Shown piece by piece: positions 1,859 through 59,476 of a stretch of 64,000 bases of DNA. The stretch is from IMG/VR virus record IMGVR_UViG_3300043775_001834, positions 1 to 64,000 of that record. One strand, written 5' to 3'. The stretch is from a virus. The notes beneath the pieces are model-generated. The model did no database searches and had not been told where the DNA came from. It saw only the letters and a program-made list of their open reading frames with translations. Positions within the stretch are counted from its first letter, which is position 1; each line of letters opens with the position of its first letter. Made by a program: the position numbers and the translations under genes.

Positions 1859-2464
1859 ATGACTACAATAGGAATTGATTTCTCCATAAACTCTACTGCA
1901 GTAGCAATAAATAAAGATGGTAAACTTACTATCTTTTCGTTCGTTCCTAATTATCGTTCTGAACTTGCCGGATTTAAAATTCATAAAGCCTTATCTGATA
2001 TGATTAGTGTTATTTCTTACGAAAAAGGAGGTAACACTAAAGACGCGTTAGCCGATCAAAGAATAAAACTACAAAATGCTGACAATCTATCAGATCAAAT
2101 AATTGAAGCAATAAAACCTCACATAACAGAAAATCCAGAAATAAGAATCGAAGGATTCTCTTTCGGATCTAAAGGAAATTCATTTATCGATTTGGTATCA
2201 TTCAATACTTTCCTGAAAGTTAAGATTATTCAATCTTATGGCCATTGCATAGATGTGGTGCCACCAAAGTCTCTAAAGAAAATATACACCGGAAACGGAA
2301 ACGCTTCAAAATGTGATATGTTGCGTAAGTTCTTGGAAGTAAAAGACACTCCTTTCAAATTAAGACTTGTAGAATTAGGACTTGATCGAGCAGAGGAATT
2401 TACTCTACCAAAACCAATCGACGACATCATAGATTCAATTGCTTTGTCTTGGGTTTCACTATAA
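1859..2464 (+). CDS. RuvC-like Holliday junction resolvase
   Basis: IGIDFSINSTA, IRIEGFSFG, PPKSLKKIYTGNGNASK, DDIIDSIAL catalytic motifs. Confidence 0.85.
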   Translation: MTTIGIDFSINSTAVAINKDGKLTIFSFVPNYRSELAGFKIHKALSDMISVISYEKGGNTKDALADQRIKLQNADNLSDQIIEAIKPHITENPEIRIEGFSFGSKGNSFIDLVSFNTFLKVKIIQSYGHCIDVVPPKSLKKIYTGNGNASKCDMLRKFLEVKDTPFKLRLVELGLDRAEEFTLPKPIDDIIDSIALSWVSL

Positions 2465-2468
2465 CAAG

Positions 2469-2569
2469 CAAACCTTGGGTTTCCCTTGGCTTTGCCTCGG
2501 AATAAACTTCTTCAATTTCCTTGAATACAAGTAATCATTATATGACTTTAAGGCCTGTACTGTTTCATA
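2469..2569 (-). repeat. Copy A of a ~105-bp non-coding element (promoter plus CCRAGG repeats), inverted relative to copy B at 59482-59592
   Basis: Reverse complement aligns with copy B: TATGAAAC-N17-CATATAA-YGATTACTTGKATTCRAGGAAA...TTCCGAGG...GCCAAGG...CCRAGGTTTG. Confidence 0.85.
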
Positions 2570-3284: not shown

Positions 3285-3313
3285 GAATCCAAGAGGATAT
3301 ATAATTCATATAA
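3285..3313 (+). promoter_or_regulatory. Replication-class promoter GAATC-N17-CATATAA with a nested late GATATATA (3296-3303), upstream of gp32
   Basis: Matches the motif pair seen before other replication genes. Confidence 0.6.
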
Positions 3314-3452: not shown

Positions 3453-4385
3453 ATGGAAAACAATTTCGACATCTTCAACATTGGCATCGACGCATACCAA
3501 GAAGAAGCAAAACCTGCATCAAAGAGCTCAGAGTTTAAAACTGACCCTAAGCTATCTAAAGACTCTATCTACAGAGCAATTGTACGATTCGTACCAAACA
3601 TCAAGAACCCTAAAAAATCTATCGTTAAGAAATTCTCCTATTGGTTAGAATTGCACGAAGGTGAAGGATTCTACGTTGACTGTCCTTCTTCGGTTAACGA
3701 AAAATCAGTAATTCAAGACACATTCTGGAAATTGTTCAAATCTGAATCAGCATTTGACAAAAAACAAGCAGAACACATCAAACGTAAAGAATACTACTAT
3801 TCTTATGTTGAGATTGTGAAAGACCCACAACGTCCTGAATTAGAAGGAACAATTCAAATTTTCAGATATCCAAAAGCTGTTAAAAAGCTAATCGATGCTC
3901 AAATCCAACCGGATGCTACTGAGATCGAAATGGGTACAACACCAACAAATATCTTCGATTTCTTCGATGGTAAAGATTTCTCAATCAAAGTTACACTTAA
4001 AGGCGGTTATTGGAATTATGACGAATGTAAATTCGCAACAGCTAATTCACCAATCTCGGTTAAAGGAGTTAAAATGGAAAACAACGCTGAATCTCGTAAC
4101 TTAATCCTTTCTTTATATGATGGATTACAACCACTTGAAGAATTTGACTTTAAACCATGGTCAGATGAACAAAGAGACAGAGTTAACAAATTCTTAGGTG
4201 AATTAATTGGTAATCCAGGTGCTGCATATTCTGCAGTAACTACACCGTCTACTCCTTCACAACCAAGTGCAGTAGCACAATCTGCTCCAGTTAAAACTCA
4301 AAACCTTGCTGAAGTATCTTCTGATGCTGTATCCGGTAATGATGGCGACATTGAAGATTGGTTAAAAGAGTTTGATATTAACTAA
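3453..4385 (+). CDS. gp32: Single-stranded DNA-binding protein (T4 gp32-like)
   Basis: AIVRFVP, YSYVEIVKDPQRPELEGTIQIFRY, FDFFDGKDFSIKV..GGYWNYDEC, acidic C-terminal tail. Confidence 0.9.
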   Translation: MENNFDIFNIGIDAYQEEAKPASKSSEFKTDPKLSKDSIYRAIVRFVPNIKNPKKSIVKKFSYWLELHEGEGFYVDCPSSVNEKSVIQDTFWKLFKSESAFDKKQAEHIKRKEYYYSYVEIVKDPQRPELEGTIQIFRYPKAVKKLIDAQIQPDATEIEMGTTPTNIFDFFDGKDFSIKVTLKGGYWNYDECKFATANSPISVKGVKMENNAESRNLILSLYDGLQPLEEFDFKPWSDEQRDRVNKFLGELIGNPGAAYSAVTTPSTPSQPSAVAQSAPVKTQNLAEVSSDAVSGNDGDIEDWLKEFDIN

Positions 4386-4447: not shown

Positions 4448-5530
4448 ATGGAATTAACAAAACAAAAACAAGACGAAATAACGGCAAAGGTTCAGAAAAT
4501 ACTCCTTAATAATTTTTCTGGTCCTAAATCTTCTATTAAAATAAATAGAGATCGAATCAATTTTGCATGTCCTTATTGTGGTGATGGTTCGGATATCCAT
4601 AAAAAGCGAGGAAATATCTATTGGAAATCGCTTTCCTTTCATTGTTATAATGGCGGTTGTCAAAAGCGTCATGCTAATGTCGTAGAATTTCTTAGAGACT
4701 TTGACCAATCAGTTACTAATAAAGACGATTTGATGTTCTTTCTTGATTATATTCGAGAAAATCAAGTAATCACACCTACAAAAGATTACATGGAACTTAC
4801 GGTCTTTGAAAATCTTAAAGAATATTCTATACCATTAGAATTAATTAAGAAAAAACTTAATTTAGTATCACCGAAAGATAATTTCAAAATTGAAAGATAT
4901 CTTAAAGGCAGATTTCTGCATAATAAACTAGAATATTTCTTATACGATCCTAAAGAAGAACAACTTTATATTTTCAATCTTACACCTGACAAACAACATA
5001 CTTTCGGTTGGCAGATTCGTAATTTTAAACCTAAACGAGAAAAATACGTAAGTTACAATATCGAAAAAATCAATCTATTGATATTAGACCGAGAATTAAA
5101 AATGCCAAATGACGAAGCAATCAGAATGAATACCCTAAGCATTTATTTTAATATTGCCCTTGTAGATTTTATGAAACCTGTTACAATTTTTGAAGGACCT
5201 ATCGATTCGATGTTATGTCCTAATTCTGTGTCTATTTCAGGATTAGATAAACCAACCGATATGTTCGATGAAATTCCAACAGTTAGATATTTATTTGACA
5301 ATGACCATGTAGGTCGTCGAAAAATGGAAGAAAAACTAAAACGAAGAAAAACTGTTTTTATGTGGAATAAGATAGTAAGAGACTTTAAAGTTCAACCTAG
5401 ATTAGCCGACATGAAAGAAGTTAAAGATTTTAACGACTTAATAAAGTACAGCTGGTTACAGAAAAACGATGCAGCAAGAAAATACAACGAATATTTTACG
5501 TCAAACCCTTTGGATATTAGATCAGTGTAA
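4448..5530 (+). CDS. gp61: DNA primase (T4 gp61-like)
   Basis: Zn finger NFACPYCGD...FHCYN; TOPRIM IFEGPIDS, FDND, KDFND. Confidence 0.9.
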   Translation: MELTKQKQDEITAKVQKILLNNFSGPKSSIKINRDRINFACPYCGDGSDIHKKRGNIYWKSLSFHCYNGGCQKRHANVVEFLRDFDQSVTNKDDLMFFLDYIRENQVITPTKDYMELTVFENLKEYSIPLELIKKKLNLVSPKDNFKIERYLKGRFLHNKLEYFLYDPKEEQLYIFNLTPDKQHTFGWQIRNFKPKREKYVSYNIEKINLLILDRELKMPNDEAIRMNTLSIYFNIALVDFMKPVTIFEGPIDSMLCPNSVSISGLDKPTDMFDEIPTVRYLFDNDHVGRRKMEEKLKRRKTVFMWNKIVRDFKVQPRLADMKEVKDFNDLIKYSWLQKNDAARKYNEYFTSNPLDIRSV

Positions 5531-5531: not shown

Positions 5532-5744
5532 GTGGAAGAAGAACTTGATAAATTTGATAAACGAGTTGCCGATAGTAAAGGTAGCTTTAAATTGATAGTT
5601 GATTTTAATCAACTAGAAGTGGAATTCAAGGGAAAACAAATTGACATTGGTAGCATAAAATATAAAAAGAAAGAAAAACCTAAGACCAAGGAGGTAATAA
5701 ACTTTCGTAAAAAGAAATCAAAAAATTCTAGCGACTTATTCTAA
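5532..5744 (+). CDS. Small basic hypothetical protein (likely GTG start 5532)
   Basis: Fills gap between primase and uvsY; stop overlaps next ATG. Confidence 0.5.
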   Translation: MEEELDKFDKRVADSKGSFKLIVDFNQLEVEFKGKQIDIGSIKYKKKEKPKTKEVINFRKKKSKNSSDLF

Positions 5745-6190
5745 TGACAGACGAAGAACAAAAGGTATCTGACCTCGAAACGGCATTAGAAACTGAGAGA
5801 GGTGAATACGCTAGAAAGATTAGCGAAATCATTAAGATGATATACAAAATAGATCGAGTTGCAGAAGCTCAGGTCTTGATGTTGTCGTTTAGGCATATGA
5901 TGGTTGAGAAATTAGCCAAATATCGATCTGCGATATATAACAAGAAATCAAATGATGCAAACTTTAGAAAGCTTAGATATGAGTATTATAAGACTGCACA
6001 TAACATAAAATTAGACTATAAAGAAATAAACGACTTTATAAATTCTGATATGTCTTTAAGGATTAGACAAACTAGCCTTTTAGAAAATCAATTGACGTTC
6101 TATACACAATGTATTGAAACGTTAGATCGAATGGGGTATTCTATAAAAAATGTAGTTTCAATCGCTGAAATGAATCATAGAAACTCATAG
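5744..6190 (+). CDS. uvsY: Recombination mediator UvsY-like
   Basis: Helical, RYEYY...FINSD...FYTQCIETLDRMGYSIKN pattern; adjacent to uvsW. Confidence 0.7.
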   Translation: MTDEEQKVSDLETALETERGEYARKISEIIKMIYKIDRVAEAQVLMLSFRHMMVEKLAKYRSAIYNKKSNDANFRKLRYEYYKTAHNIKLDYKEINDFINSDMSLRIRQTSLLENQLTFYTQCIETLDRMGYSIKNVVSIAEMNHRNS

Positions 6191-6207
6191 AAAATAAAAT
6201 TTAACAT

Positions 6208-7200
6208 ATGCAGTGGGATCTAACGCATAATGACAAACTTTTAACTCTGACATCAGCCTCAGAAATAGAAATGGAGCAAATAAAGCTTTCATTTACTAGA
6301 GAAGCGGCTAATGCCAAATGGGATCCTCGAGTTAAAAAGGGATGGTGGGATGGTAAAATAAGCTACTTTAAAGGTGGTCGATATTTGCCTTCAGGCCTTT
6401 GGAATGAAGTCGTGAATGTTGGTAAACAATATAATTTTGAAGTAGGTATCAATGGAATTGAACGTAAATTCGATGCAGACATAAACAAAGAAGATTTTAC
6501 TGAATGGGTAAATCTTAAATTTGCTAATTCAGCTAGAAAGCCTAGAGATTATCAAATAGAAACTGCATTTCAAATCATCAAATACAAGAGCTGTTTGGCA
6601 GAATTAGCTACATCGGCAGGTAAGACATTGATTATTTTCATGGTAATTTCTTTTATGTTAGAAACTAGAAAGAGCCATAAAGTGCTAATGATCGTACCTA
6701 CGGTTGATTTAGTTGTTCAATCATCCGAAGACTTTTATGAATATAATACCGATTCGGTTAATATGAAACTACAAATACAACAAATATTTGCAGGATCTGT
6801 TATTAGAGATGGTGCTAATATTGTTGTAGGTACTTACCAATCTCTAGTTAAAAAAGACAAAGAATATTTTGATTCATTTGATACGGTTTTAGTTGACGAA
6901 TGTTTGCATCCGGATACTTTAATTTCTATGGCAGATGGAACTTCGAAAAAAATAACAGATGTTAAAGGTGGAGATTTAGTATTAACTACAAACGATAATA
7001 CTTTAGAAAAGGAAGCTAGAGTGGTCGATTTCGTTTATCATAATCTATCTAAAAATAATCAAATGTTTGAATTAGAGATGGAAGATGGAACCGTCTTGAG
7101 AGTAACTGGTAATCATAAAGTCAAATTAACTACAGGGAAATATAAAAGAGTTGATGAATTGACTTTGGATGACGAAATTTTAGAAAATAGATACATTTAA
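6208..7200 (+). CDS. uvsW: UvsW SF2 helicase N-terminal half fused to split-intein N-part (6901-7197)
   Basis: WDGKI, PRDYQ, ATSAGKT, IVPT, VGTYQS, VLVDE then CLHPDTLISMADG and VTGNHKV intein blocks A/B. Confidence 0.9.
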   Translation: MQWDLTHNDKLLTLTSASEIEMEQIKLSFTREAANAKWDPRVKKGWWDGKISYFKGGRYLPSGLWNEVVNVGKQYNFEVGINGIERKFDADINKEDFTEWVNLKFANSARKPRDYQIETAFQIIKYKSCLAELATSAGKTLIIFMVISFMLETRKSHKVLMIVPTVDLVVQSSEDFYEYNTDSVNMKLQIQQIFAGSVIRDGANIVVGTYQSLVKKDKEYFDSFDTVLVDECLHPDTLISMADGTSKKITDVKGGDLVLTTNDNTLEKEARVVDFVYHNLSKNNQMFELEMEDGTVLRVTGNHKVKLTTGKYKRVDELTLDDEILENRYI

Positions 7201-7203
7201 CCT

Positions 7204-7240
7204 TATGAGTTTAAATATATAAAATAAACAAACTCATATG
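7204..7240 (+). promoter_or_regulatory. Hairpin occluding the endonuclease start codon, with a late promoter (AATATATA 7214-7221) in its loop
   Basis: TATGAGTTT (7204-7212) pairs with AAACTCATA (7230-7238), which includes the A of ATG 7238. Confidence 0.65.
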
Positions 7241-8047
7241 ACGAAATCCGAAATTTATGAATATATTAATAAAAATAAGATGAAATTCTTAGGATCTAAT
7301 ATAGGCACATATGATGAGAAATTAGATAATTGGATAAGGTCTCAAGGATTTAAAATACCGGTATTTGGTTCACAAAATGTTTTCGATTATTTGACTGACG
7401 ATAAAGGTAAATTTTGTAACTGTGGAAAACCTAATAAGTTTGATACCTTTAGTCATGGTTATTCTAAATTTTGTTCGAAAGATTGTTTATATAAATGGAG
7501 GTCTGTTAATATGATTGGTGAAAAAAATAACATATACAAAGCAACACCAGAAACCCTAAAAGAAATGGGTAAAAAAAATAGCATACGTATAAAAAAATCT
7601 ATCGCTGAAGGAAAATTCACTCCATGTGTAACTAACTCGTGGGCAAAATCAAGATGCATTGTTGAAATTACTCAAGGAAATATTATTAATAAAATAAAAT
7701 GCAGATCTTCCTGGGATGCTTATTTCCAGATTAGAAATCCGGAATTATTATATGAAAGAATAAGAATTCCTTATGTTATAAAAAACGAATTACATAATTA
7801 CATAGTAGATTTTGTTGATATAAAAAATAAAATTATATATGAAATTAAACCTGAAGGTTTATGTGATTTAGAACTCAATCAAATAAAATTCAAAGCCGCT
7901 CTTGATTGGTGTGAAACTAATCAATACACCTTTAACATAATATCAAATGAATGGTTTGAAACTAATTATGATGAATCTTTATTAAAAGGCCAACCGGATG
8001 AATATAAAATAAAAAGATTATTAAAACAATTTAAAAATGAAAATTAA
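7238..8047 (+). mobile_element. Free-standing putative homing endonuclease (PD-(D/E)xK, TnsA/gp4-like C-terminal domain) between split-intein halves
   Basis: CNCG..FCSKDC Zn motif; RSSWD...YIVDF..IYEIKP nuclease motif; location inside fractured uvsW. Confidence 0.75.
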
Positions 8048-8981
8048 AAGTATAAAAAAAATAGATTATACTGGCGATGTTTATAATCTTCGAATAAAAT
8101 CAGAAGACGGTAAAAACCATAATTATTTTGCAAATGGCTTGAATGTTTCGAATTGTCATAAGGCAAAATCTCAATCGATCAAAACTATCTTAGAAAAATG
8201 TGAAAACGCTGATAGAAGATTTGGTCTTTCTGGTACAATTCCTAAAGAAGGATCTTTAGATAGATTGACTATTATGGCTTATACCGGACCTATAATTTCA
8301 TCTATTAGTGCAGATTTCTTAATTGAAAAGGGACATATCACTCCATGTGAAGTTTATGCAATAGAAATGGATTATGCACCACAAGAAGTAAAAGAAGGAT
8401 TTAAAGTTTTACATGCTAGATCTGAAGATGATAGAAAGAAATTGCTTAAACTTGAACAGGATTATGCAATACAATCAAATGCTAGGCTGCAATTTATTAC
8501 GGATATGATTTTAAAGAATCATAAAAACTCTCTTGTACTTTTCTTTAGAATCGAATACGGTAACAAAATCTATGATATGCTAAGACAGAAAACTGTAAGG
8601 AGAGTATTCTACATCGATGGTGGAACCGACAAAGATGTTCGTTCAAGTCATAAAGAAGGTCTCGAAGAAGGTGAAGGGAAAATTATGATTGCATCTTATG
8701 GTACATTCTCGACAGGTATCAATGTAACAAATATTCATACCATATATCTCACAGAATCATTCAAATCTGAGGTTATTATTCGTCAATCTATTGGTAGAGG
8801 ACTTAGAAAACATGAGGATAAAAAGAAGCTACTCATCATTGACTTTATAGATGATTTTAGAGTTGGACGATACAATAACTATCTATACAAACATGGTTTA
8901 GCTAGACAAGAAATCTATGACGATCAGAAGTTCCCTTTTCAAGTCAAGACCGTCGATGTAGGAAAGATATACAACACATAA
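8037..8981 (+). CDS. uvsW: Split-intein C-part (8037-8153) fused to UvsW C-terminal half
   Basis: MKIKSIKKIDYTGDVYNLRI...HNYFANGLNVSN|CHKAK restores DECH; GLSGT, ASYGTFSTGIN, QSIGRGLR helicase motifs. Confidence 0.9.
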   Translation: MKIKSIKKIDYTGDVYNLRIKSEDGKNHNYFANGLNVSNCHKAKSQSIKTILEKCENADRRFGLSGTIPKEGSLDRLTIMAYTGPIISSISADFLIEKGHITPCEVYAIEMDYAPQEVKEGFKVLHARSEDDRKKLLKLEQDYAIQSNARLQFITDMILKNHKNSLVLFFRIEYGNKIYDMLRQKTVRRVFYIDGGTDKDVRSSHKEGLEEGEGKIMIASYGTFSTGINVTNIHTIYLTESFKSEVIIRQSIGRGLRKHEDKKKLLIIDFIDDFRVGRYNNYLYKHGLARQEIYDDQKFPFQVKTVDVGKIYNT

Positions 8982-12163: not shown

Positions 12164-12819
12164 AATTAACAACATACGAAGAATATCTAAATGAAAACAT
12201 AAATGAATTTGGCCCTTTAGCTGGTTCAGGTAATGTTCGAGCAGATGAACTAAATAACCTGCAACGAGAAGCTGCAAAGAAAAGTGAAAGAGGAGAAACT
12301 GTTTATATAGTAGGTGCTAAAAACGGATCTTATAAATTATCAAAATATTTCGAAAAGGGAAATACTTATGCAGCATATTATAACGGTATGCCGCAAGTAG
12401 TAGAAGGAATTTTAGAAAATGAAAATTTTTTAAATGAAGCTCTTAAAGACATTACGATAAGTGATACAGAAGCAGAAGAAATTTTTGACGAAATCAAGCG
12501 TCTTACTAAATTACATAAAGAAAAGGGATTTGTTTCCGGTGAAGTTTCCGTAGATGGATTCGCTAAATCTTCAGGAGCATTTGGATTAAATCCAGACGAT
12601 AAAAACCTTAAAATTGCTGGCATCTCTGCAACTACATTCGGAGTTTTTGCATGTATAACAACTCAAGCTAATATTGTAGTTTGTTATGTCACTTTAGGTT
12701 ACGATACGTTAAAGAAAAAATTAAAACTAGGAAGTTATTCTCTTACTTTTTATAGTGGTAGAGAATCTCATTTCAATCAAATAGCTAGACAATACAAAAA
12801 AACAATATACAACAAATAA
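12160..12819 (+). CDS. Putative internal head protein
   Basis: MKLTTYEEYLNENINE leader; internal ILENENFLNEA. Confidence 0.65.
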   Translation: MKLTTYEEYLNENINEFGPLAGSGNVRADELNNLQREAAKKSERGETVYIVGAKNGSYKLSKYFEKGNTYAAYYNGMPQVVEGILENENFLNEALKDITISDTEAEEIFDEIKRLTKLHKEKGFVSGEVSVDGFAKSSGAFGLNPDDKNLKIAGISATTFGVFACITTQANIVVCYVTLGYDTLKKKLKLGSYSLTFYSGRESHFNQIARQYKKTIYNK

Positions 12820-12820
12820 T

Positions 12821-13390
12821 ATGAAACACATACCTACATACGAAGAATTCGTAAACGAATCAGTACTAAACGAAGGAAGAGTTAAAGCAGCTACATTACT
12901 TCAAGAAATAATAGACGGTAATACTTCTAGAGCAGAAGGTATTAAAATGTCTAAAGACTTAGCTGAACACTATCTGTATTGGTTGAGAACTTCTCCTTAC
13001 GGCAAGAAAAATACAGATTTGCCTCTATATATGCTAATCAAAGCTTCATTTAATTGGGGTATTGAAAGACAATTAGATAAAAAATTAAAAGTAGAGCTAG
13101 ATACATTGAAAACTACAATCAACAAACCAATGAATGAAGGTTTTAATGCAAGCTATTGGGAAGGTTATCATGAAAAATCTGCAAAAATTCCAAATCCAAC
13201 GGATATGCAAATTCAACAAGAAGTAGAAGCTTCGGTTGAAGAATGGAACGATAATAATGAAAACGGGAAAGAGAATGAAGTAACTCCTGCAGGTGAAAAG
13301 AAAGTTTTAGCTCTTGCAAAACAATTCGTTAAAGCAAAAAAATATATTTGCTCAGATATTATTGATGCAATGATAGCTCAAGAATCATAA
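12821..13390 (+). CDS. Putative internal head protein
   Basis: MKHIPTYEEFVNESVLNEG leader. Confidence 0.65.
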   Translation: MKHIPTYEEFVNESVLNEGRVKAATLLQEIIDGNTSRAEGIKMSKDLAEHYLYWLRTSPYGKKNTDLPLYMLIKASFNWGIERQLDKKLKVELDTLKTTINKPMNEGFNASYWEGYHEKSAKIPNPTDMQIQQEVEASVEEWNDNNENGKENEVTPAGEKKVLALAKQFVKAKKYICSDIIDAMIAQES

Positions 13391-14753: not shown

Positions 14754-16139
14754 ATGATATTAGACGTAGAAAATAACGAAAGCGAATTAGTCATCTCCTA
14801 CTATGACAAAGAAGGTCGAGTTAAAATTAAAAAATTCGAAATCCCTCATATATTGAATTGGACTGTTTGTTCTATAACAGATCCTCGAAGAAATCCAGAT
14901 TTTCAGAATTGGGATGGCAAACCAGTTAAAAAGATTGCCGAAAAACGACTTAATAAATGGTCAGTTTACGAGTTCATTAATACTCTACCACCAGAAGAAA
15001 GAGAAGAACTTTCTGCATTAAACTTCCCTAAAGTACAATCAATAGATATTGAAACCGAAGTTATCGATGGATTCCCTAAACCTGAAATAGCTAGAGAAAG
15101 AATAACAACTATTGCGATTGCAACAGAATCAAATTCTACGTTAGTTCTCGGTTGGAAAAAAATATCTAAAGAGCAAGAAAAAGAAATTTTTGACAAACAT
15201 CGAGAATACCTTAAAGAATTCGGCGATTGGAATTTTAAATATATGTACTTTGAAGATGAGTACAATATGATGTATACTTTCATCAACAAATTTTTACCTA
15301 ATTTTTCATTAGCTATCGGCTGGAACTTTATGGGATTTGACTGGAAATATATTTCTAATCGATGCAAAAGATTAAATATCGATGTATCAAAAGCATCACC
15401 CTCTGGAAAACTACAAGGAAACGATCTAATACCATTACACATCGGAATTATCGATTATCTAGACGTCTATCGTAGATGGGATAGAACTGTAGCGATTAAA
15501 GAAAGCAATAAACTTGATTGGGTTGCTAATTCTGTGCTAGGTGTAACAAAATTACATTATAGTGGTACTTTACAGGAATTGTATGAAAATGACTATGATA
15601 AATACATTCTCTACAATGCCATAGATGCTGCGTTAGTGTGCTTAATTCACAAAAAATTAAAAACCCTTAACTCGGTATTGTCCGTTTCTTGTTTATGTGA
15701 TTTGTCTATTTATAAGGCTTCTTCTGCAGTAAATTTAACTGAAGCACTTTTATGGAAAGGTTATTTTAAAAGAAACATGGTAATTGCTGATAAGAAAGTA
15801 GATACACCAAAAGGTTCGTATGAAGGTGCTTATGTTAAAGAACCTGAAGCAGGTATGTTTAGAGCTGTAACATGTTTTGATTACGCTTCACTATACCCTT
15901 CAATTATGAGACAATTTAATGTTTCTCCGGAATCATTTATAACTAAAACACAAGATACAGACAAACTAGAAAAACATAAATCAGATTCGAACTTTATAGT
16001 TTCTACCACAGGTGCAATATATAATAATCAAGAAGTTTCCGTACTTAAGGAAATTCTTACTACGTTATATTCAGAGAGAAAGAGAAAAAAGAACATACAT
16101 TTGGAGATCGAACGAAAAATGTCAAAATTAAAAAATTAA
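14754..16139 (+). CDS. gp43: Family B DNA polymerase, N-terminal subunit (exonuclease plus motif A), gp43A
   Basis: DIET, GWNFMGFD, YNAID exo motifs; YEGAYV, FDYASLYPSIM; ends in fingers helix, lacks motifs B/C. Confidence 0.9.
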   Translation: MILDVENNESELVISYYDKEGRVKIKKFEIPHILNWTVCSITDPRRNPDFQNWDGKPVKKIAEKRLNKWSVYEFINTLPPEEREELSALNFPKVQSIDIETEVIDGFPKPEIARERITTIAIATESNSTLVLGWKKISKEQEKEIFDKHREYLKEFGDWNFKYMYFEDEYNMMYTFINKFLPNFSLAIGWNFMGFDWKYISNRCKRLNIDVSKASPSGKLQGNDLIPLHIGIIDYLDVYRRWDRTVAIKESNKLDWVANSVLGVTKLHYSGTLQELYENDYDKYILYNAIDAALVCLIHKKLKTLNSVLSVSCLCDLSIYKASSAVNLTEALLWKGYFKRNMVIADKKVDTPKGSYEGAYVKEPEAGMFRAVTCFDYASLYPSIMRQFNVSPESFITKTQDTDKLEKHKSDSNFIVSTTGAIYNNQEVSVLKEILTTLYSERKRKKNIHLEIERKMSKLKN

Positions 16140-20825: not shown

Positions 20826-22019
20826 ATGAATATAGAAAAACTTACATTAGAAGACATACAAAATTTAGATTTCTCGACTTTAAGTCCTGAAGAACTAAAT
20901 GAATTTAAGAATGAATCCTTAAGATGTGCATCTTCTGAGCAGGCGATAAAGCTCATCATTAATTCAATTTACGGTGCATTCGCAAACGAATATTTTCACT
21001 TCTATAACATTGCAATTGCAGAAACCGTAACATTACAAGGACAAGATGCTATTCGTTTTACCGAAGTAATGGTTGACAAGTACTTTAAAGAATTCTTTCA
21101 TAAAGATCGAGCTTTGTTAGAAAAATTAGGTGTTCCTGAAGGTGTTCAAGTAAAACCAATCAAAGGTCAAGTATGGAAATATACTGATACGGATTCGGGT
21201 TATCTTATTTTCGAAGAAGTTATGGATTCTGTTGAATGGCAAGGTACAGTTAAAGATTTTGTGTTAAATATTAATGCAAATCGACTTGCCGCATATATCA
21301 AAAAAGTATTAGATGATTATGCAAAACAACGTAATACTGAAAATTACTTGGATTTCGAGCTAGAAACAATTGCAGAAAATGCAATATGGGTTGCTAAAAA
21401 GAAATATATCCAAAACATCATATGGAAAGATGGTAAAGATTACGATAACCTATCTTATGTGAAAACTACAGGTCTAGAGATTATTCAATCATCAACTCCA
21501 GTATTTTGCAGACAAAAACTAACAGATGCTGTAAGATTTATTTTCACGAAGAAAAAAATCACACCTAAAGACAATGCAGAGTTAGTTAAAATTATCAAAG
21601 AAATAAAGAAAGAGTTTAAACTTTCAAACATTGAAAAAATATCAATGTCTCGAGGAATATCTGATTACAACAAATTCATCATCAACGACCAAACATCCTT
21701 TGAAATGAAATCAGGTTGTCCAATTCACGTCAGAGCAGGTGGTTATCATAACTATTTGCTTAATCAAGACCCAAAATTAAAAGGCAAATATCAATTGATA
21801 CAAGCTGGAGATAAAGTAAAATGGTATCATTCATCAGATCAATTCTGTGATGTATTTGCCTATACTTCTGGAAATTATCCTATTGAATTTGCACCTAAAA
21901 TAAACCTCGAACATCAATTCCAAAAAACCATTCTAGATCCTCTAAATCGAATCATTGTTCCTGCAGGGTTACCTCCACTCCACCCTTCGTTAGCGTATAC
22001 TATCGGGTCACTTTTTTAA
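20826..22019 (+). CDS. gp43: Family B DNA polymerase, C-terminal subunit (motifs B, C, thumb), gp43B
   Basis: EQAIKLIINSIYGAF, TVTLQGQ, YTDTDS, AKKKYI, GLEIIQSSTP; C-terminal clamp-binding-like SLF; own CATATAA promoter at 20812. Confidence 0.9.
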   Translation: MNIEKLTLEDIQNLDFSTLSPEELNEFKNESLRCASSEQAIKLIINSIYGAFANEYFHFYNIAIAETVTLQGQDAIRFTEVMVDKYFKEFFHKDRALLEKLGVPEGVQVKPIKGQVWKYTDTDSGYLIFEEVMDSVEWQGTVKDFVLNINANRLAAYIKKVLDDYAKQRNTENYLDFELETIAENAIWVAKKKYIQNIIWKDGKDYDNLSYVKTTGLEIIQSSTPVFCRQKLTDAVRFIFTKKKITPKDNAELVKIIKEIKKEFKLSNIEKISMSRGISDYNKFIINDQTSFEMKSGCPIHVRAGGYHNYLLNQDPKLKGKYQLIQAGDKVKWYHSSDQFCDVFAYTSGNYPIEFAPKINLEHQFQKTILDPLNRIIVPAGLPPLHPSLAYTIGSLF

Positions 22020-33371: not shown

Positions 33372-33731
33372 ATGTCAATTTACGTAAAACCAAAAGAACT
33401 CTACGAGGAAATATGCATTTCCTTAAAACAAGAAAAATTAACCAAGAAGGCAGAAGAAATGCTTATCTTAATTGCATATCGAGCTAATACGAGATTAACG
33501 TATGAAGATCCGATGGACCGAGAAGATTGTATAGCTTTTGCCCTTTTGGATTTGTTTAAATACTGGAAATCATTTAAGCCAGAAAAAACTAAAAACGCAT
33601 TTTCCTATTTTACTCAAATAGCTAAAAATGGATATGCTAAAGGATGGAATAAATTACATCCAGGAAAATACAAAGGAACTATATCTCTAAGTGGAGGTAA
33701 TGGTGATTCCGAAGGTATTTATTCCGTTTAA
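33372..33731 (+). CDS. gp55: Late transcription sigma factor (T4 gp55-like)
   Basis: YVKPKELY, LILIA, REDCIA, FKPEKTKNAFSYFTQIA parallels gp55 YVNNKEL...FDETKYKNPHAYITQ. Confidence 0.8.
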   Translation: MSIYVKPKELYEEICISLKQEKLTKKAEEMLILIAYRANTRLTYEDPMDREDCIAFALLDLFKYWKSFKPEKTKNAFSYFTQIAKNGYAKGWNKLHPGKYKGTISLSGGNGDSEGIYSV

Positions 33732-34272: not shown

Positions 34273-34303
34273 ATATAAAAAACAAAAACAATAATAAATT
34301 AAA

Positions 34304-34660
34304 ATGAAAAAATTATTATCATTTGACGAGTTCGTAAACGAACATTACAAAATTCAAGAAGCTACCGACGCTGATGGATTTGACCCACAAAATACTACCG
34401 GAGTAGATCCAACAGGACCAGCTTTAACTTCTGTTTCTGAATTACTTCCTGGTAAAGAATATGTTATCACTGTAGATGATACTGTTAATACTGATATGAT
34501 ATATCAAGGTGTAACTGATGGAGTTCACATTTTTAATGGTGAAGATAAAGCTAATGATATTCAGTATACTGATACTGAAATTGCTGATGTTATCGCTAAA
34601 GGTGGATTTGTACAAGTTTTAGAAGGTAATTCTTCTGAAAGTGTAGCTACTGAAGAGTAA
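34304..34660 (+). CDS. Putative internal head protein; shares a module with C-terminus of 31458-33122
   Basis: MKKLLSFDEFVNE leader; SVSELLPGKEYVI...YQGVTDGVHIFN; GATAAATA at 34268. Confidence 0.6.
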   Translation: MKKLLSFDEFVNEHYKIQEATDADGFDPQNTTGVDPTGPALTSVSELLPGKEYVITVDDTVNTDMIYQGVTDGVHIFNGEDKANDIQYTDTEIADVIAKGGFVQVLEGNSSESVATEE

Positions 34661-43806: not shown

Positions 43807-45277
43807 CGAATTTGTAATTAATGAGGCTGTAAAACCGGCACCAAAAAATCCTGTTAAAATTGTACTTCTTTCCAATATTAGTGAGGAATCATACACTGTT
43901 CCTGCAGTTGATAAAGAATGTAAAAAACGTGGAATCGAATTCCGCATCATTGATGTTAATACATGTTCATTGACTAAAAGCTCAGATGGAGATTATTTTA
44001 CTATCGTTGATAAAACCAAGAAACCTTTTAAAATAGATTCAGAAGATACTGCAATTTTAACTCGTAGAGGAATCGTTAGAAATACTTATACTCGAGATAT
44101 TGTATCTCAATTAGAAGATAATAATTTCTTTGTAGTAAACACTTTAAGTTCAGTTTTAGCTTGTGAAAACAAATACGTTACTTCAAAAATACTTATGGAT
44201 GCCGGTCTTCCGGTTCCTAAAATGGCAATGGTCGATGGAGAAGATTCCATTGAACCGGCAGTCGAACAAGTTGGTGGCAATTTTCCGGTAATCCTTAAAA
44301 TGCTTTCCGGTTCACAAGGAATTGGAGTTTCTATTATAGATTCATTAGCATCTCTTAAATCAGTATTACAAACTTTATGGAAAGTCGATCCAACCGTAGA
44401 AACTCTTATACAAGAAAAGATCGAATCAGAATATGATTTACGTATTCACGTTTTAACTAAGCGTTTCAATTCACCTAGACCGGAAGATACTGATTCGGTA
44501 CTTTTAGGTTATATGAGAAGAAACAAAGTTGATAAAGACTTTAGAACTAACTACTCATTAGGCGGTTCAGTTGAAAAAACCAAATTAACACCAGAACAAG
44601 AAAGAATTGCGATCGAATCGGCTAAGGCAGTAGGTTGTAATTGGTGTGGAGTTGATATTATTGTTGATGAGAAAACTGGTAAAAACTATGTACTAGAAGT
44701 TAATTCATCTCCAGGTACACAAGGATTAAAAAAGGCTACTGGTGTAGATGTTATTAAAGACATCATCGATTTTCTATCAGATAGACAAAATTGGATTCGT
44801 TCACGTAGAATTATTGGATTTAGAGAAGTAATTACAATTCCTGGAATTGGTGATATTGTTTCTAAGTTCGATACTGGTAATGGTTCACTTTCATGTTCAT
44901 TAACTTATGATAAAATGAAAATTAGTGAAGATGGCAAACAATGTAATTGGGAATTGAACGGTAAAAAATATGTGCATCAGATAATTGGAATTTCTAATGC
45001 AGAAGTTGGTAATGATATTGATGAAAGACCTATTATAGAAATGGATATCGCATTTGCTGGTAAAACTTACAAAGAAGTTCAAGTTTCATTAGTTAATAGA
45101 ATCGACAAATCTACTAAATTTTTAGTAAATAGGAAATTCATGGAAAGAATTGGTTGTTCAGTATCGCCATATAAAACTTTCGTAGTAACTTCATTTGATG
45201 GTGAATATCATCCAGGTGAAGCTAAAGGAAGTGCACATGCTGGAATAACATTTGAAAATAAAAAAACAAAGAAATAA
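43781..45277 (+). CDS. rimK: RimK-family ATP-grasp ligase fused to C-terminal retropepsin-like (RimB-type) protease, with capsid-targeting-like leader
   Basis: NKY, GLPVPK, FPVILK..GSQGIGV, IQE, DLR, FRTNYSLGG, GVDII, LEVNSSPG; C-terminal KFDTGNG (44870), ERPII, SLVNR...FLVNRKF. Confidence 0.85.
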   Translation: MKNRLAYFNEFVINEAVKPAPKNPVKIVLLSNISEESYTVPAVDKECKKRGIEFRIIDVNTCSLTKSSDGDYFTIVDKTKKPFKIDSEDTAILTRRGIVRNTYTRDIVSQLEDNNFFVVNTLSSVLACENKYVTSKILMDAGLPVPKMAMVDGEDSIEPAVEQVGGNFPVILKMLSGSQGIGVSIIDSLASLKSVLQTLWKVDPTVETLIQEKIESEYDLRIHVLTKRFNSPRPEDTDSVLLGYMRRNKVDKDFRTNYSLGGSVEKTKLTPEQERIAIESAKAVGCNWCGVDIIVDEKTGKNYVLEVNSSPGTQGLKKATGVDVIKDIIDFLSDRQNWIRSRRIIGFREVITIPGIGDIVSKFDTGNGSLSCSLTYDKMKISEDGKQCNWELNGKKYVHQIIGISNAEVGNDIDERPIIEMDIAFAGKTYKEVQVSLVNRIDKSTKFLVNRKFMERIGCSVSPYKTFVVTSFDGEYHPGEAKGSAHAGITFENKKTKK

Positions 45278-45684
45278 TGAGTAAACTACCTACATATGAA
45301 GAATTCTTAAACGAATCTACATCATTAGCGGTTGGCGGAGAACATTGGAATGTGTATATTGCTAACAAAGACACAGAAGTTAAAAATATCAAAGGAACTA
45401 GAAAGGTAAAAGTATCAGTTGGAACTGTAATAAGTGCTGCTGGAGGTGGATATTGGGTAAACATCGATCGTAGTGTTGAAACTGGAATCGAGTCTCTTGA
45501 AGGCAACCCAGATTTTGATGTCCTTAACGATTCAACTTGGCCTAAAACTGTTGAACTAACTAAGGAAATAGAAAAATGGGCAAGAGATACTGATCGTCTT
45601 ATGCAAAGAGACCCTAAAAAGGCACAATCGGTTATCAATAATCGAAACCGAGTTATAGAAGACATTAAAAAATTATTAAAGTAA
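45277..45684 (+). CDS. Putative internal head protein
   Basis: MSKLPTYEEFLNES leader. Confidence 0.65.
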   Translation: MSKLPTYEEFLNESTSLAVGGEHWNVYIANKDTEVKNIKGTRKVKVSVGTVISAAGGGYWVNIDRSVETGIESLEGNPDFDVLNDSTWPKTVELTKEIEKWARDTDRLMQRDPKKAQSVINNRNRVIEDIKKLLK

Positions 45685-45685
45685 T

Positions 45686-45913
45686 ATGGAACACTTACCT
45701 ACATTCAATGAATTCGTAAACGAAAAAGCTGAGAACTATATGACGATAGAAAATCTTAAAACTATCAAAAGAAATGTAGAAATTCTTTTAGCTATGGATC
45801 CCATTAAAATAGACGAAATCTTAAAGAATGGGCATGATTGGGCAGAAGACCACATTTCAGTAGCAAACGAAAACTTAGACCAAGTAACAAAATTCTTTAC
45901 TAACGAACAATAA
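45686..45913 (+). CDS. Putative internal head protein
   Basis: MEHLPTFNEFVNE leader. Confidence 0.65.
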   Translation: MEHLPTFNEFVNEKAENYMTIENLKTIKRNVEILLAMDPIKIDEILKNGHDWAEDHISVANENLDQVTKFFTNEQ

Positions 45914-45940
45914 ATTGTTAATAACTTTTTGAAAATAATT

Positions 45941-45970
45941 AATCCGACATTTCCTAGTGTCGGATTTTTT
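45941..45970 (+). terminator. Terminator hairpin
   Basis: AATCCGACA...TGTCGGATT followed by T-run. Confidence 0.75.
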
Positions 45971-45972
45971 GC

Positions 45973-46008
45973 TTATATTTACATATCTAATTAAAACTAC
46001 ACATTATG
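45973..46008 (+). promoter_or_regulatory. Early promoter/leader cassette, copy 1
   Basis: TTATATTTACATATCTAATTAAAACTACACATTATG; resembles Bacteroidota -7 TAnnTTTG. Confidence 0.7.
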
Positions 46009-46296
46009 TCAAATCAAAATTCATTATTCACGTCAGTTAAAACATTTTTAAACGAACGTAACGATCAACAATTTAAGGTATCGGATTTAATCAAACATAC
46101 TACCGGTATTGAAAATGTTACTAATTGGAAGAGATGGAACAATAATCCTGGATATCGTACTCGTCAATATCTATCAAATTTACGAAGATTAGAATTTATC
46201 AAAAACGTTAAATATGGAGTTTGGGAAGTAATCAAACCAATACCACCAGATTTCAATTCAACTTCTATGAATATTGCTCTTAACTACATATACTAA
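46006..46296 (+). CDS. Early hypothetical protein (winged-helix-like)
   Basis: TRQYLSNLRRLEFIKNVKYGVW wHTH-like end. Confidence 0.55.
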   Translation: MSNQNSLFTSVKTFLNERNDQQFKVSDLIKHTTGIENVTNWKRWNNNPGYRTRQYLSNLRRLEFIKNVKYGVWEVIKPIPPDFNSTSMNIALNYIY

Positions 46297-46301
46297 ATAT
46301 T

Positions 46302-46475
46302 ATGAAAGGATTTAACGAACCTAAAAATTGGAATTTTTACATTACAATAAATAGCATAGAAACTCTTGTTGCTACTAAATATTGCAAATGTCCTTCACTT
46401 ACTAAGATTTGGAAAGAACTTGAATATAGGCTTTCATATGAATCAGAAGTTAAAAGCATAAAATGGTGTCTATAA
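46302..46475 (+). CDS. Small early hypothetical protein (57 aa, not in ORF track)
   Basis: MKGFNEPKNWNFYITINSIETLVATKYCKCPSLTKIWKELEYRLSYESEVKSIKWCL* fills the gap exactly. Confidence 0.55.
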   Translation: MKGFNEPKNWNFYITINSIETLVATKYCKCPSLTKIWKELEYRLSYESEVKSIKWCL

Positions 46476-46520
46476 ATTGTTAATAACTTTATTGAAATAA
46501 ATTTCCATGTTTCAGATTAT

Positions 46521-46560
46521 TTGATTAAATTTACATATCTAATTAAAACTACACATTATG
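46521..46560 (+). promoter_or_regulatory. Early promoter/leader cassette, copy 2
   Basis: TTGATTAAATTTACATATCTAATTAAAACTACACATTATG. Confidence 0.7.
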
Positions 46561-47034
46561 ATGACAGAATCACAAATCCACGAACAAAAAGAACTTGAAT
46601 CTAAATTAGCTCATAACTATGAGTTGTCTCATCGAGAGAACATGCTTCTCATATATTCAGATTTCCATAAAGATGCTTATGGTTTTCGTCCTCGTACTAT
46701 TAATGTATATGCCTTAACTACTGAGGAGTTAGAGGCCGATTTTGATCGTTTCGAACAGGTTTGTGCTGATAATCGTGAAGAGGAATTGGCTGCTGAATTT
46801 GAAGCGGATAAAGCCTTCCAAAACCTTATTACTAATACTATCCAAATAGGTGCTAGTGATGAGATTACTGCCTTACGTTGGATCGCTGAAGGTGCGGTAG
46901 AACAATACGGTTATGATTATGAGCACTTCCTTTGGAACCGAGGTATTTTATACTCAGCTTACGGTAAAAGAATTGCCCAGAGAATTGCTCCTATCTGGGG
47001 TAAAGCATTGTTCCAATATGAAAAGGCTGCATAA
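46558..47034 (+). CDS. Early hypothetical phage protein
   Basis: YSDFHKDAYGFRPR motif seen in phage early proteins. Confidence 0.65.
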   Translation: MMTESQIHEQKELESKLAHNYELSHRENMLLIYSDFHKDAYGFRPRTINVYALTTEELEADFDRFEQVCADNREEELAAEFEADKAFQNLITNTIQIGASDEITALRWIAEGAVEQYGYDYEHFLWNRGILYSAYGKRIAQRIAPIWGKALFQYEKAA

Positions 47035-47080
47035 TTTTTAATAAATTTTTAACACTTTAATTTTTTTAGTTTCCTCAATA

Positions 47081-47120
47081 TTGATTATATTTACATATCT
47101 AAATAAAATAAAGAAACATG
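47081..47120 (+). promoter_or_regulatory. Early promoter/leader cassette, copy 3
   Basis: TTGATTATATTTACATATCTAAATAAAATAAAGAAACATG. Confidence 0.7.
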
Positions 47121-47249
47121 ATTATATCAACCGAACTAGCTGAAAAATTAATAGCAACAGGAAGACTTCTTTTTGGAGATTATTTCATTAACCTAGAAGG
47201 AGAATACTATATTACTCGTAAAAAACTTAATAAAATCAAAACATCGTGA
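47118..47249 (+). CDS. Small early peptide (43 aa, not in ORF track)
   Basis: MIISTELAEKLIATGRLLFGDYFINLEGEYYITRKKLNKIKTS*, directly after cassette 3. Confidence 0.5.
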   Translation: MIISTELAEKLIATGRLLFGDYFINLEGEYYITRKKLNKIKTS

Positions 47250-47344
47250 AACAAAATGTAAAAGATAATCTAGTGATGGCAGTATTCTGTATTATTGTTA
47301 TAATAATCACAACTATAATTGCTCATTTTTCGCCTGTAATGTAA
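47246..47344 (+). CDS. Possible 32-aa single-TM peptide (GTG start overlapping previous stop)
   Basis: MKQNVKDNLVMAVFCIIVIIITTIIAHFSPVM*. Confidence 0.35.
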   Translation: MKQNVKDNLVMAVFCIIVIIITTIIAHFSPVM

Positions 47345-47530
47345 TGTAAAGAATTCTATTTTATCTCTAAAATATGGTTTGCTAGCAATATTATAACATT
47401 AAACTAGATGAAACTCTAATCCTCATACACTAGCCGGAACATTAGATAAAATGGTTAAAGATAAAATTAAAGCAAAGTGTTAAAACTTTAACAAAATTTT
47501 AACACTTTAGATTTTCACGATACAAACATA

Positions 47531-47570
47531 TTGATTATATTTACATATCTAATTAAAACTTCATATTATG
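47531..47570 (+). promoter_or_regulatory. Early promoter/leader cassette, copy 4
   Basis: TTGATTATATTTACATATCTAATTAAAACTTCATATTATG. Confidence 0.7.
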
Positions 47571-57696: not shown

Positions 57697-58563
57697 ATGT
57701 TTTATTGCTATATATTACTAGATCCTACTAAGCCAGGAATTTATCAATATGAAAATTTCAAATTTGATTTCGAACCCTTTTATGTAGGTAAAGGCAAATC
57801 AAATAGAATTAATTCTCATGATAAAATAAAAGATACAAAGACTCATAAAGGAGCAAAAATACAGAAGATTAAAAAATTAGAGTTAGAAGTTATTAAAATC
57901 AAATTATTTGAAAATTTAACTGAATCAACATCTTTTGAATTAGAGGTATCAACTATTTCTATTATTGGTAGAAAAGACAAATCTAAAGGCCCTTTACTTA
58001 ATTTAACTGATGGAGGTGAAGGTACTTCAGGTAAAATTTACACTAAAGAAGAAAAATTGCATAAATCAATTAAATCAAAAGAATGGTGGTTTTTATTAAA
58101 AGAGGATAGAATTAGTTATGAAGATTATATTAAAAAACTATCATCCGGAGTATCAAAAGCTCAAACCGGAGTTCCTTATGAAATTAGATATGGAGATCGA
58201 GCCGAAGAAATAAGAATTAAAAAATCTGAATGGACTAAAGAAAATTTTCATAGAACTGGATTAGGTCAAATGGATTTTAAAGGAGAGAATAATCCTATGT
58301 TCGGTAAATCTATAAAAGATATATGGATTGAAAAATATGGCATAGAAGAAGCTGAAATCAAACATAAAGAGTGGATCGCTAATAAATCTGGTAAAATTCC
58401 TCATAATAAATTAAATATTCAAATTTCTCAAAAAGATAAAGAAGGTAATTTAATAAAAATATGGAACGGATATCCGGAAGGATTTTCTAAACCGAATATA
58501 TGTAAAGCTCTCAAAGGTGAAAGAAAATTTGCTAATGGATTTATATGGGAATATGTTAGATAA
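57697..58563 (+). mobile_element. Free-standing GIY-YIG homing endonuclease with NUMOD-type DNA-binding modules
   Basis: FYCYILLDP...FYVGKG..R, LE, LLNLTDGGEG; GENNPMFGK; NICKALKG...GFIWEY. Confidence 0.85.
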
Positions 58564-58581
58564 ATAAATAAAGAAATAATT

Positions 58582-58857
58582 ATGAAACATATACTAACAT
58601 TCGAAGAATTCTTAAACGAATCAACGATAAAAGAAAGCGCAGAAGCATTCAACATATCTACGATAAAAATAAAAGATGTTGTAGAATTAACAAATACTAG
58701 GACTGGTGATGTAGGACAATACACGGTAAAGAAAATACATGGTGGTTCAAGTAATATCAAAGAGATTGAATTATTGAACCGTAGTAAACAACCTCTAATT
58801 TTGTATTATAGTAAAGAACGTGGCCTACAAAACTTTAAAGGAGATACTTACAAATAA
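58582..58857 (+). CDS. Putative internal head protein
   Basis: MKHILTFEEFLNES leader; GATAAATA at 58559. Confidence 0.65.
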   Translation: MKHILTFEEFLNESTIKESAEAFNISTIKIKDVVELTNTRTGDVGQYTVKKIHGGSSNIKEIELLNRSKQPLILYYSKERGLQNFKGDTYK

Positions 58858-58868
58858 AAGAAATAATC

Positions 58869-59417: not shown

Positions 59418-59438
59418 CCACATATAAGCCATATAATG

Positions 59439-59476
59439 ATGTGCAAGAGACTTTTTAAGTTTTTTGCACATTTTTT
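59439..59476 (+). terminator. Terminator hairpin
   Basis: ATGTGCAAGAGACT...AGTTTTTTGCACAT followed by T-run. Confidence 0.75.

Follow-up and report, generated by a model that had tools for sequence, protein, structure and literature searches.

A multi-copy, promoter-driven non-coding cassette in distant T4-type phages

The replication origins ori(uvsY) (oriF) and ori(34) (oriG) of phage T4 are middle promoters whose transcripts form priming R-loops. These MotA-dependent sigma-70 promoters are orphan or shared promoters of the replication-recombination gene class and are followed by an AT-rich unwinding element; their transcripts are non-coding for the purposes of the origin, several such sites are dispersed over the genome, and to our knowledge they share no conserved sequence. 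Promoter-proximal transcribed elements, which are present in several copies and in opposite orientations, are represented by nutL/nutR of phage lambda and putL/putR of HK022. They contain defined hairpins, are sited ahead of the operons they serve and are almost identical within a phage, but different between phages. Phage T7 has gene-less promoters of its own (phiOL, phiOR and 1.1A/B), which are read by a single-subunit polymerase and located at the genome ends and the primary origin, and T7 transcription serves replication and packaging. In T4-type phages, PeSLs are repeated intergenic promoter cassettes able to recombine, i.e. numerous early promoters flanking variable small ORFs. Promoters read by ECF sigma factors are characterized by an AAC-containing -35 box and a fixed spacing, and SigW of Bacillus subtilis reads TGAAAC-N16-CGTA. 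Here, we analysed an intergenic cassette that occurs in two inverted copies in a viral contig from IMG/VR, and compared it with its counterparts in related phages and with these described systems.

Two inverted copies in the genome of a distant T4-type phage

The window, i.e. the whole stretch of DNA analysed here, comprises the first 64 kb of a 77.6-kb contig (32% GC, CheckV completeness estimate 25%), in which a single coding strand holds nearly all genes. The phage is of a distant T4 type and encodes a RuvC-like Holliday-junction resolvase (1859-2464, plus strand; phrog_159, E = 4.8e-14), gp32 (3453-4385), a primase (4448-5530), a UvsY-like protein together with a DNA helicase interrupted by an endonuclease gene (5744-8981; helicase halves in the ORFs 6208-7200 and 8037-8981, endonuclease gene between them at 7238-8047) and a T4-type large terminase (TerL, 60915-62753). 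A dUTPase, a two-part DNA polymerase, a DnaB-like helicase and a clamp loader are also encoded in the contig. The nearest cultured relatives of TerL belong to Tenacibaculum and Flavobacterium phages, Sphingomonas phage PAU and the Lak megaphages, and the nearest database record is LR756500.1, a 462-kb uncultured phage with 42% identity. Since Shine-Dalgarno motifs are near-absent 5' of the phage genes (2% compared to 7% in the background) and host-type promoters of the form TAnnTTTG are present in the genome, a Bacteroidota host is likely, and the group of huge T4-like phages carrying the cassette probably infects Bacteroidota.

The two parts of the DNA polymerase (14754-16139 and 20826-22019) lie about 4.7 kb apart, each preceded by CATATAA, and the genes between them include a 248-aa ORF without a family match. 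Positions 3-605, truncated by the window edge, code for the C-terminal part of a protein in which a Gly run is followed by a Hint/intein-like segment (CFIEGT...VHN). Small ORFs at 12790-12874, 34273-34342, 45263-45739, 58551-58635 and 58838-58907 share a start motif of approximately MK(H/T)(I/L)(L/P)T(F/Y)EEF(L/V)NE, which corresponds to the families D1, D2 and D4 of the repeat finder and resembles an N-terminal targeting leader such as the capsid-targeting sequence of T4, while the proteins are otherwise unrelated. At 45925-47558, four near-identical intergenic cassettes end in TTGATTATATTTACATATCTAATTAAAA, a TAnnTTTG-like host-type promoter, and each is followed by a small gene; similar host-type promoter cassettes are located before 49878, 67175 and 69466.

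A preliminary description of the window had aligned the reverse complement of positions 2469-2569 with positions 59482-59592. We could reproduce this alignment, which covers a promoter-like part and about 75 nt downstream of it. Copies A and B have TGAAAC-N17-CATATAA and a conserved downstream stretch in common, and the described difference between a divergent spacer and a conserved downstream part is indeed found in both of them. When the whole 77.6-kb contig was scanned, the exact pattern TATGAAAC-N17-CATATAA was found at these two sites only. A shared 21-mer (GATTACTTGKATTCRAGGAAA, up to three mismatches) also matched copies A and B only, at a chance expectation of 0.01 and with none of 100 shuffles reaching two matches, and a family profile search of the contig returned the two copies (E = 1.5e-11 and 1.8e-11) and nothing else.

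Copy A (2469-2569, minus strand) occupies the intergenic stretch from the stop codon of the RuvC-like gene (2464), whose 3' end faces the copy, to the next plus-strand ATG (2599); its position bears out that it is antisense and points into the RuvC-like gene. It consists of a -35-like box TGAAAC with the ECF-type AAC motif (2562-2567), a 17-nt spacer of fixed length and free sequence (2545-2561), a -10-like box CATATAA (2538-2544) and a conserved 45-nt core (2493-2537; TGATTAC TTGTATTCAAGG AAA ...TTCCGAGG), all on the minus strand. The core is identical in the orthologous copies of relatives, whereas the spacer and the flanks differ. Three CCRAGG units (2473-2500, minus strand), which are, as originally noted, exactly 11 nt apart (2500-2495, 2489-2484 and 2478-2473), form a lineage-specific tail that is missing from the clades of the relatives G002 and G004 introduced below.

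Copy B (59482-59592, plus strand) has the same architecture, with the -35-like box TGAAAC at 59484-59489, the -10-like box CATATAA at 59507-59513, the conserved 45-nt core at 59514-59558 and a GC-rich tail with CCGAG/CCAAGG units at 59559-59592, in which the CCRAGG units are unevenly spaced. Just 5' of it, an intrinsic terminator-like hairpin with a T-run (59438-59472, plus strand) ends the upstream unit. Downstream, a motif resembling a late-class promoter (GATATATAAT, 59600-59609, plus strand) is located between copy B and the gene of a 210-aa acidic protein (59628-60260, plus strand). Because of this motif, which recurs upstream of 29409, 37603, 41411, 57697, 62802 and 71297, i.e. presumably of late genes, we conclude that the 210-aa gene has its own promoter. 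The gene lies two genes upstream of TerL and has no family match, so that it is terS-like by position only. The neck-region gene on the other side of copy B (622 aa, 55783-57651) has a weak match to 'head closure Hc2' (E = 9.4e-05) as its only PHROG match. Between the neck gene and the terS-like gene, which are adjacent in relatives, we further found a 288-aa ORF (57697-58563), which is probably a homing endonuclease according to a GIY-YIG-like N-terminus judged by eye, and two small leader-tagged ORFs (58582-59417). A tandem pair of CATATAA (59421-59436) directly follows the stop codon of the ORF 58869-59417, just 5' of the terminator hairpin, and may be what is left of the promoter located directly 5' of the terS-like gene where relatives lack the cassette.

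A dispersed cassette family in large relatives

A search for further copies in the full contig and in related genomes, as it had been suggested, revealed a conserved multi-copy family, for which exact-pattern scans of IMG/VR and metagenome contigs followed by filtering yielded 35 distinct members. The element is therefore not a pair, as initially assumed: close relatives hold a third copy, which is located outside this contig. Based on contigs that are 80-91% complete, the copy number is exactly three in the relatives G001, G002, G004 and G006 (207-294 kb). In the near-identical relative G001 (294 kb), copy C is located at about 102.8 kb, copy B at 225.7 kb and copy A at 282.1 kb, and in G002 (246 kb) copies A, B and C are located at 47.9, 101.8 and 191.1 kb, respectively; the copies are dispersed and unclustered, with distances of 54-123 kb between them. 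G004 (254 kb) and G006 (207 kb) represent a more distant clade with the -35 box TGAATC. Two copies are present in a 144-kb fragment (G003), and two were found in LR756500.1, which are mutually inverted, 210 kb apart and identical in a 36-nt core. A profile search of the genomes recovered exactly these copies and no weaker matches, and a looser pattern scan of viral contigs gave mostly chance matches in coding sequences.

Some metagenome contigs end in or right after a cassette, at the -10 box or the spacer (the start of L021, and L060, which is the end of the 144-kb fragment, G003:142810-144480). Identical cores are expected to break assemblies and explain why those of these phages break at cassette sites. 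The 'direct terminal repeat' of G002 (1-69 and 246013-246081) is a 69-bp collagen-like repeat coding for GXY; it is therefore no proof of complete ends, and the record may be incomplete or non-circular.

Neither the two boxes (-35: TGAAAC, or TGAATC in the one clade; -10: CATATAA) nor the 17-nt spacing vary among the 35 members. Over 40 bp upstream of the -35 box the AT content is 84%, and the 17-nt spacer is unconserved and rather GC-rich. CATATAA is followed by Y-N-N-TTAC and then by a core of the form ..GG.TT.CRAGG(T)AAA..(G/A)ATAYAGT..TC(A)RGG. The conserved block begins no more than 3 nt from the -10 box, upstream of any likely start site, and conservation across all clades stops about 36-45 nt in. 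GC-rich repeat tails are present in some lineages only, e.g. as a 20-nt doublet in L011 or as 11-12-nt units in L028. The CCRAGG array, which had been regarded as iteron-like, is confined to the lineage of the window, with other repeats in other lineages and no GC-rich repeats in G002, and a family-wide array of at least three direct repeats of about 17-22 bp, as in iteron-type origins, was not found, the units of the window lineage being only 6 nt long. From this lineage-specific distribution we conclude that 'iterons' are not a defining feature of the family.

The genomic context differs between the copies. Copy A is found after the RuvC-like gene, at a distance of 26-67 nt from the stop codon and in antisense orientation throughout, an arrangement that is conserved in G002, G004 and LR756500.1, with one extra gene intervening in G004. 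It heads the replication module, which includes gp32, the primase, the UvsY-like protein and the split DNA helicase, and is oriented divergently to the first gene there. Copy B is located between the neck-region gene and the 210-aa terS-like gene. Its orientation is sense in the clade of the window as well as in G002, whereas the G004 clade has it inverted; many relatives lack it and have just CATATAA and about 20 nt before the terS-like gene. Copy C is located in sense orientation upstream of an endolysin gene in the clades of the window and of G002, but the lysins are unrelated by their N-terminal motifs (chitinase-like in G001, peptidase-like in G002), and in the G004 clade the third copy precedes a 154-aa gene instead of the endolysin gene. 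Overall, about half of all copies fire against the sole coding strand. An intrinsic terminator precedes the sense B copies, antisense copies lie immediately next to the stop codon of the gene before them, and a separate late promoter is located between sense cassettes and the gene that follows.

The 45-nt core is 76-100% identical within a genome (45 of 45 positions in G004), compared to 60-73% between genomes, and the inverted copy B of the G004 clade is still identical to its paralogues at 45 of 45 positions. The spacer, in contrast, which is located only 7 nt from the core and between invariant boxes, is 18-71% identical even between paralogues, and between close orthologues it diverges faster than the adjacent intergenic DNA. 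Copy C of G001 is a mosaic with an A-like middle between a B-like 5' end and a B-like tail, and variants of the B type are present in some A copies, e.g. in L012. These mosaics indicate that short tracts are exchanged between copies. Exchange within the long identical block, halted by the diverged spacer, can explain the concerted evolution, for which co-evolution with a shared partner is an alternative. Judged by these comparisons, the cassette is real, under selection and non-coding.

Promoter class and properties of the downstream region

The promoter had been assigned to a replication class. This assignment is supported by looser versions (NAWWC-N17-CATATAA) in front of replication genes, among them those of gp32, the clamp loader and the helicase, but the exact TATGAAAC-N17-CATATAA is unique to the element within the contig. 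GAATC-N17-CATATAA is located upstream of gp32 (3285-3313, plus strand), and further examples start at 19306, 23550, 48181 and 54249. A weaker two-block promoter also precedes the 248-aa ORF, which has no PHROG match, and another gene, and CATATAA alone is located 12-36 nt before the dUTPase and both DNA polymerase parts. The cassettes represent the ECF-type promoters with the best consensus, and in half of the cases there is no gene for them to serve.

Relatives encode a 200-aa sigma factor of the ECF superfamily (87 bits compared to a cut-off of 42.9, best models SigW), the gene of which lies outside our contig (G001:201598-202200, minus strand, and G002:124199-124807, plus strand) and is preceded by TGTTAATAAC ... 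TTATTATATTTGTA, a TAnnTTTG host-type promoter. This protein is a candidate for the sigma factor of middle genes. The cassette has an AAC-bearing -35 box and a fixed spacing in the 16-17-nt range, and recognition by the ECF sigma factor of the relatives is predicted; we thus consider the promoter to be probably read by the phage's own ECF-type (SigW-like) sigma factor. Another protein of 119 aa (33372-33731), which matches sigma region 2 alone with 19 bits, i.e. below the cut-off, is likely to be the counterpart of the T4 late sigma factor gp55. The temporal programme of the phage would lead from host-type promoters via ECF-type promoters to a late class with the motif GATATATAAWA.

Neither copy contains a convincing ORF, as had been stated before; a 64-aa antisense ORF (2430-2236) has no start codon in relatives. 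No ATG is present in the cassettes of copy A, G002, L018 and L022, and readings as a small ORF (MIYLVPR-stop in copy B, 'M I stop' in L028 and L034) were rejected as not conserved. In agreement with the earlier statement that no known RNA family can be assigned, the window had no Rfam match at the gathering threshold, and permissive scans of both copies remained at chance level. A search for tRNA and tmRNA genes found none, and no intrinsic terminator was detected downstream of either copy. Minimum free energies were not better than those of shuffled sequences on either strand (z-scores of -0.55 to +0.46), and RNAalifold predicted zero pairs in a consensus fold of 14 members. The CUUG/CRAG mini-hairpin that had been proposed as conserved in both copies could not be substantiated, since it lacked covariation among 31 distinct sequences and its score was reached by 247 of 500 shuffles. 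Its arms form direct rather than inverted repeats in several clades, and the hairpin is lineage-specific. A TTAC/GTAA stem is 84% paired among the 31 distinct sequences, but no pair is changed on both sides. Pairing of the GC-rich spacer with its own core or tail was no better than that of the spacers of other copies (244 and 340 of 2000 permutations) and was rejected, as was a pairing of AAACTCGG with CCGAGGTTT closing a 105-nt domain, which fits copy B only; in copy A it is reduced to AAAC/GTTT, and a partner is missing in copy C and in other lineages. No complementarity to the core longer than 14 nt, i.e. no target in trans, was found in G001 or G002.

The region +60 to +100 contains 52-57% AT compared to about 65-68% in the flanks, and a GC-enriched patch is located 25-65 nt after the start, within an AT-rich genome. 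In contrast to ori(uvsY) and ori(34), the promoter is followed by GC-enriched DNA and not by a DNA-unwinding element. The transcribed strand is unmarked with respect to an R-loop-prone composition, with a purine fraction of 0.57 compared to 0.55 in the background and a GC skew of 0.26 compared to 0.08 +/- 0.27. The cumulative GC skew, which had been named as a check for an origin, is monotonic and does not inflect at the copies; for a phage that is coded on one strand and replicates by recombination, however, the test has little power. In the tail, C exceeds G on average (skew of -0.15 compared to +0.08 in the background).

Two further ideas on the element were discarded: a link to bS21-encoding lake phages (PMC9723584), as no S21 gene is present in G000, G001, G002 and G004; and a mimic of CRISPR repeats, as the core has neither repeat-like termini nor an Rfam CRISPR match. 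A role of the Shine-Dalgarno-like RAGG as a ribosome bait would be attractive in view of the scarcity of such motifs 5' of the phage genes, but it is speculative, as the motif strength is not conserved across clades.

Possible roles of the cassette and comparison with described systems

The orientation of the cassette relative to its neighbours is not conserved and the sense copies are followed by a separate late promoter; therefore, the cassette is not simply the promoter and leader of its neighbour, and we consider it very probable that it is an autonomous unit. A transcription-primed replication origin and a small RNA, between which the preliminary description had left the choice, both stand as the leading readings. 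We infer that the cassettes are transcribed by the sigma factor assigned above and, only tentatively, that the three units are transcription-primed replication origins, by analogy a functional counterpart of the middle-promoter origins of T4. In such a scenario, the orphan promoters would fire together with the promoters of the replication genes and give rise to a short untranslated transcript, which would stay hybridised to the GC-enriched downstream stretch as an R-loop and prime leading-strand synthesis, and the conserved core could be the site that is recognised or processed by the replication machinery of the phage. An origin is favoured by a promoter of the replication class, by copy A heading the replication module, by a GC-enriched stretch that could hold a hybrid, by the T4-type replication and recombination genes and by the dispersal of the copies, whose distances of 54-123 kb suit a chromosomal role in cis. 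The missing downstream unwinding element, the unremarkable strand composition and the lack of a skew signal argue against it. Moreover, a conserved core is not predicted by the T4 model, given origins that share no sequence, and an RNA gene would leave the same pattern of a conserved transcribed region next to a free promoter spacer.

The cassettes could also represent paralogous genes for a small non-coding RNA, or for a cis-antisense RNA, with the 45 nt as the functional 5' part, a reading that we regard as only slightly less likely than the origin. The transcript would be made together with the replication genes and receive its 3' ends by Rho or by processing, and convergent transcription from copy A would also keep the RuvC-like resolvase silent as long as branched intermediates are needed. 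Besides the conserved transcribed part next to a drifting promoter spacer, this reading would account for the irrelevance of the orientation relative to neighbouring genes, for the concerted evolution of the paralogues with mosaic exchange and for the constant and very old antisense position of copy A 26-67 nt from the RuvC-like stop codon, from the clade of the window out to LR756500.1; the excess of C over G in the tail is what is expected of a Rho entry site. However, no copy is followed by a terminator, no fold exceeds shuffled sequences or yields consensus pairs, neither candidate stem covaries, and core complementarity of more than 14 nt elsewhere in G001 or G002 as well as an Rfam match are lacking. 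In addition, the copies are dispersed instead of being arranged in tandem, and conservation sets in at most 3 nt from the -10 box, before any likely start site.

This last feature, a block that begins at the edge of the -10 box and spans the start site, is compatible with a promoter-proximal loading or operator site for a phage-specific factor, either a nut/qut-like modifier of RNA polymerase or a repressor, which we nevertheless consider improbable. The cassettes would then serve as portable transcription switches or as insulators between modules, and convergent transcription would stop read-through in places without a terminator. Every copy is located at a border of gene modules, with a terminator 5' of the sense B copies and the antisense copies abutting the upstream stop codon, and, as with nutL/nutR of lambda, copies from one genome are near-identical, whereas those from different lineages are not. 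Yet operon antitermination would be pointless for the roughly half of the copies that oppose the only coding strand, a conserved hairpin is missing and no candidate gene for the factor travels with the element, and the identity within a genome could result from gene conversion in the long identical block without any partner.

It is very unlikely that the cassettes are selfish or neutral mobile promoter units without a dedicated function, which are spread by recombination like the PeSLs of T4. The presence, absence or inversion of the element at the B site among relatives, the mosaic structure of the copies and the stem-loop that is often located 5' of copy B are compatible with mobility. But the copy number is three in four large relatives (two copies found in LR756500.1), the context of copy A is conserved across phages whose TerL proteins are only 42% identical, the core is strictly conserved while flanks and spacer drift, and a recombination-proficient phage would be expected to lose repeats of 60-150 bp that bring no benefit.

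Least probable of all are pac-like sites for packaging initiation, bound by the small terminase and coupled to the transcription complex: packaging is transcription-dependent in T7 and gp17 contacts gp55 in T4, copy B always adjoins the terS-like gene in either orientation, copy A adjoins a resolvase gene that is needed to clear branches before packaging, and some tails have short repeats phased at about 11 bp, but each genome has three sites in mixed orientation (at least two in LR756500.1) with only one beside the terS-like gene, the repeats are missing in G002, many relatives with a terS-like gene have no element upstream of it, the promoter is of the replication-gene and not of the late class, and contigs ending at the element (L021, L060) are the usual output of assemblers at repeats.

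Extending the origin reading to the phage group, the two to three concertedly evolving, ECF-read cassettes of the huge T4-like phages of Bacteroidota might be sequence-defined starts of replication, or of another transcription-licensed process, e.g. packaging, with the 45-nt core being recognised by a phage factor; this generalisation is speculative and we regard it as doubtful. If true, it would establish a conserved family of origins for the first time outside the enterobacterial T4 model, in uncultivated huge Bacteroidota phages, for which hardly any origins or other non-coding elements have been described. Origins of this kind would imply that priming from replication-class promoters as in T4 is ancient and yet able to use a conserved, recognisable sequence, and an RNA would add a new family to the phage RNAs, unusual in its fixed copy number. 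In either case the cassette is easily recognised, conserved in genomes from 207 kb to 462 kb and tied to a phage-encoded ECF sigma factor. It thus provides a handle on the apparent temporal programme from host-type via ECF-type to late promoters and, in each genome, three defined places for studying the start of replication or the action of a phage RNA.

As in ori(uvsY)/oriF and ori(34)/oriG of T4, the cassettes are orphan or shared promoters of the replication-recombination class, dispersed as several sites per genome and followed by a non-coding sequence, and they occur together with a T4-type set of gp32, primase, DnaB-like helicase, clamp loader, UvsY-like protein and a DNA helicase that may be UvsW. 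The promoter is, however, ECF-like, so that the match in class is an analogy and does not extend to MotA dependence; the downstream part is GC-enriched and contains a shared 45-nt core, and the AT-rich tract (84%) is located upstream of the -35 box instead of downstream. With nut and put sites the cassettes share the promoter-proximal position, the opposite orientations and the identity of copies within, but not between phages, but they contain no supported hairpin and half of them face against genes. Like the T7 promoters they are gene-less and phage-specific, whereas the T7 sites are not known to share a conserved transcribed core. In common with PeSLs they are repeated intergenic promoter cassettes able to recombine, but there are only three copies at conserved sites, with a downstream core and with a promoter class unlike that of the host-type TAnnTTTG cassettes at 45925-47558. 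The TGAAAC box with the AAC hallmark, the fixed spacing of 16-17 nt and the SigW-like sigma factor of close relatives resemble SigW-type ECF promoters, but the -10 box is (GT)CATATAA instead of CGTA, and the sigma factor is encoded by the phage and appears to drive a whole temporal gene class. The closest systems, i.e. the T4 origins, the lambda nut sites and the orphan promoters of T7, function similarly in part, but each fails at least one defining feature tested, and no described family matches the cassette, which in kind is an orphan promoter-driven non-coding unit.
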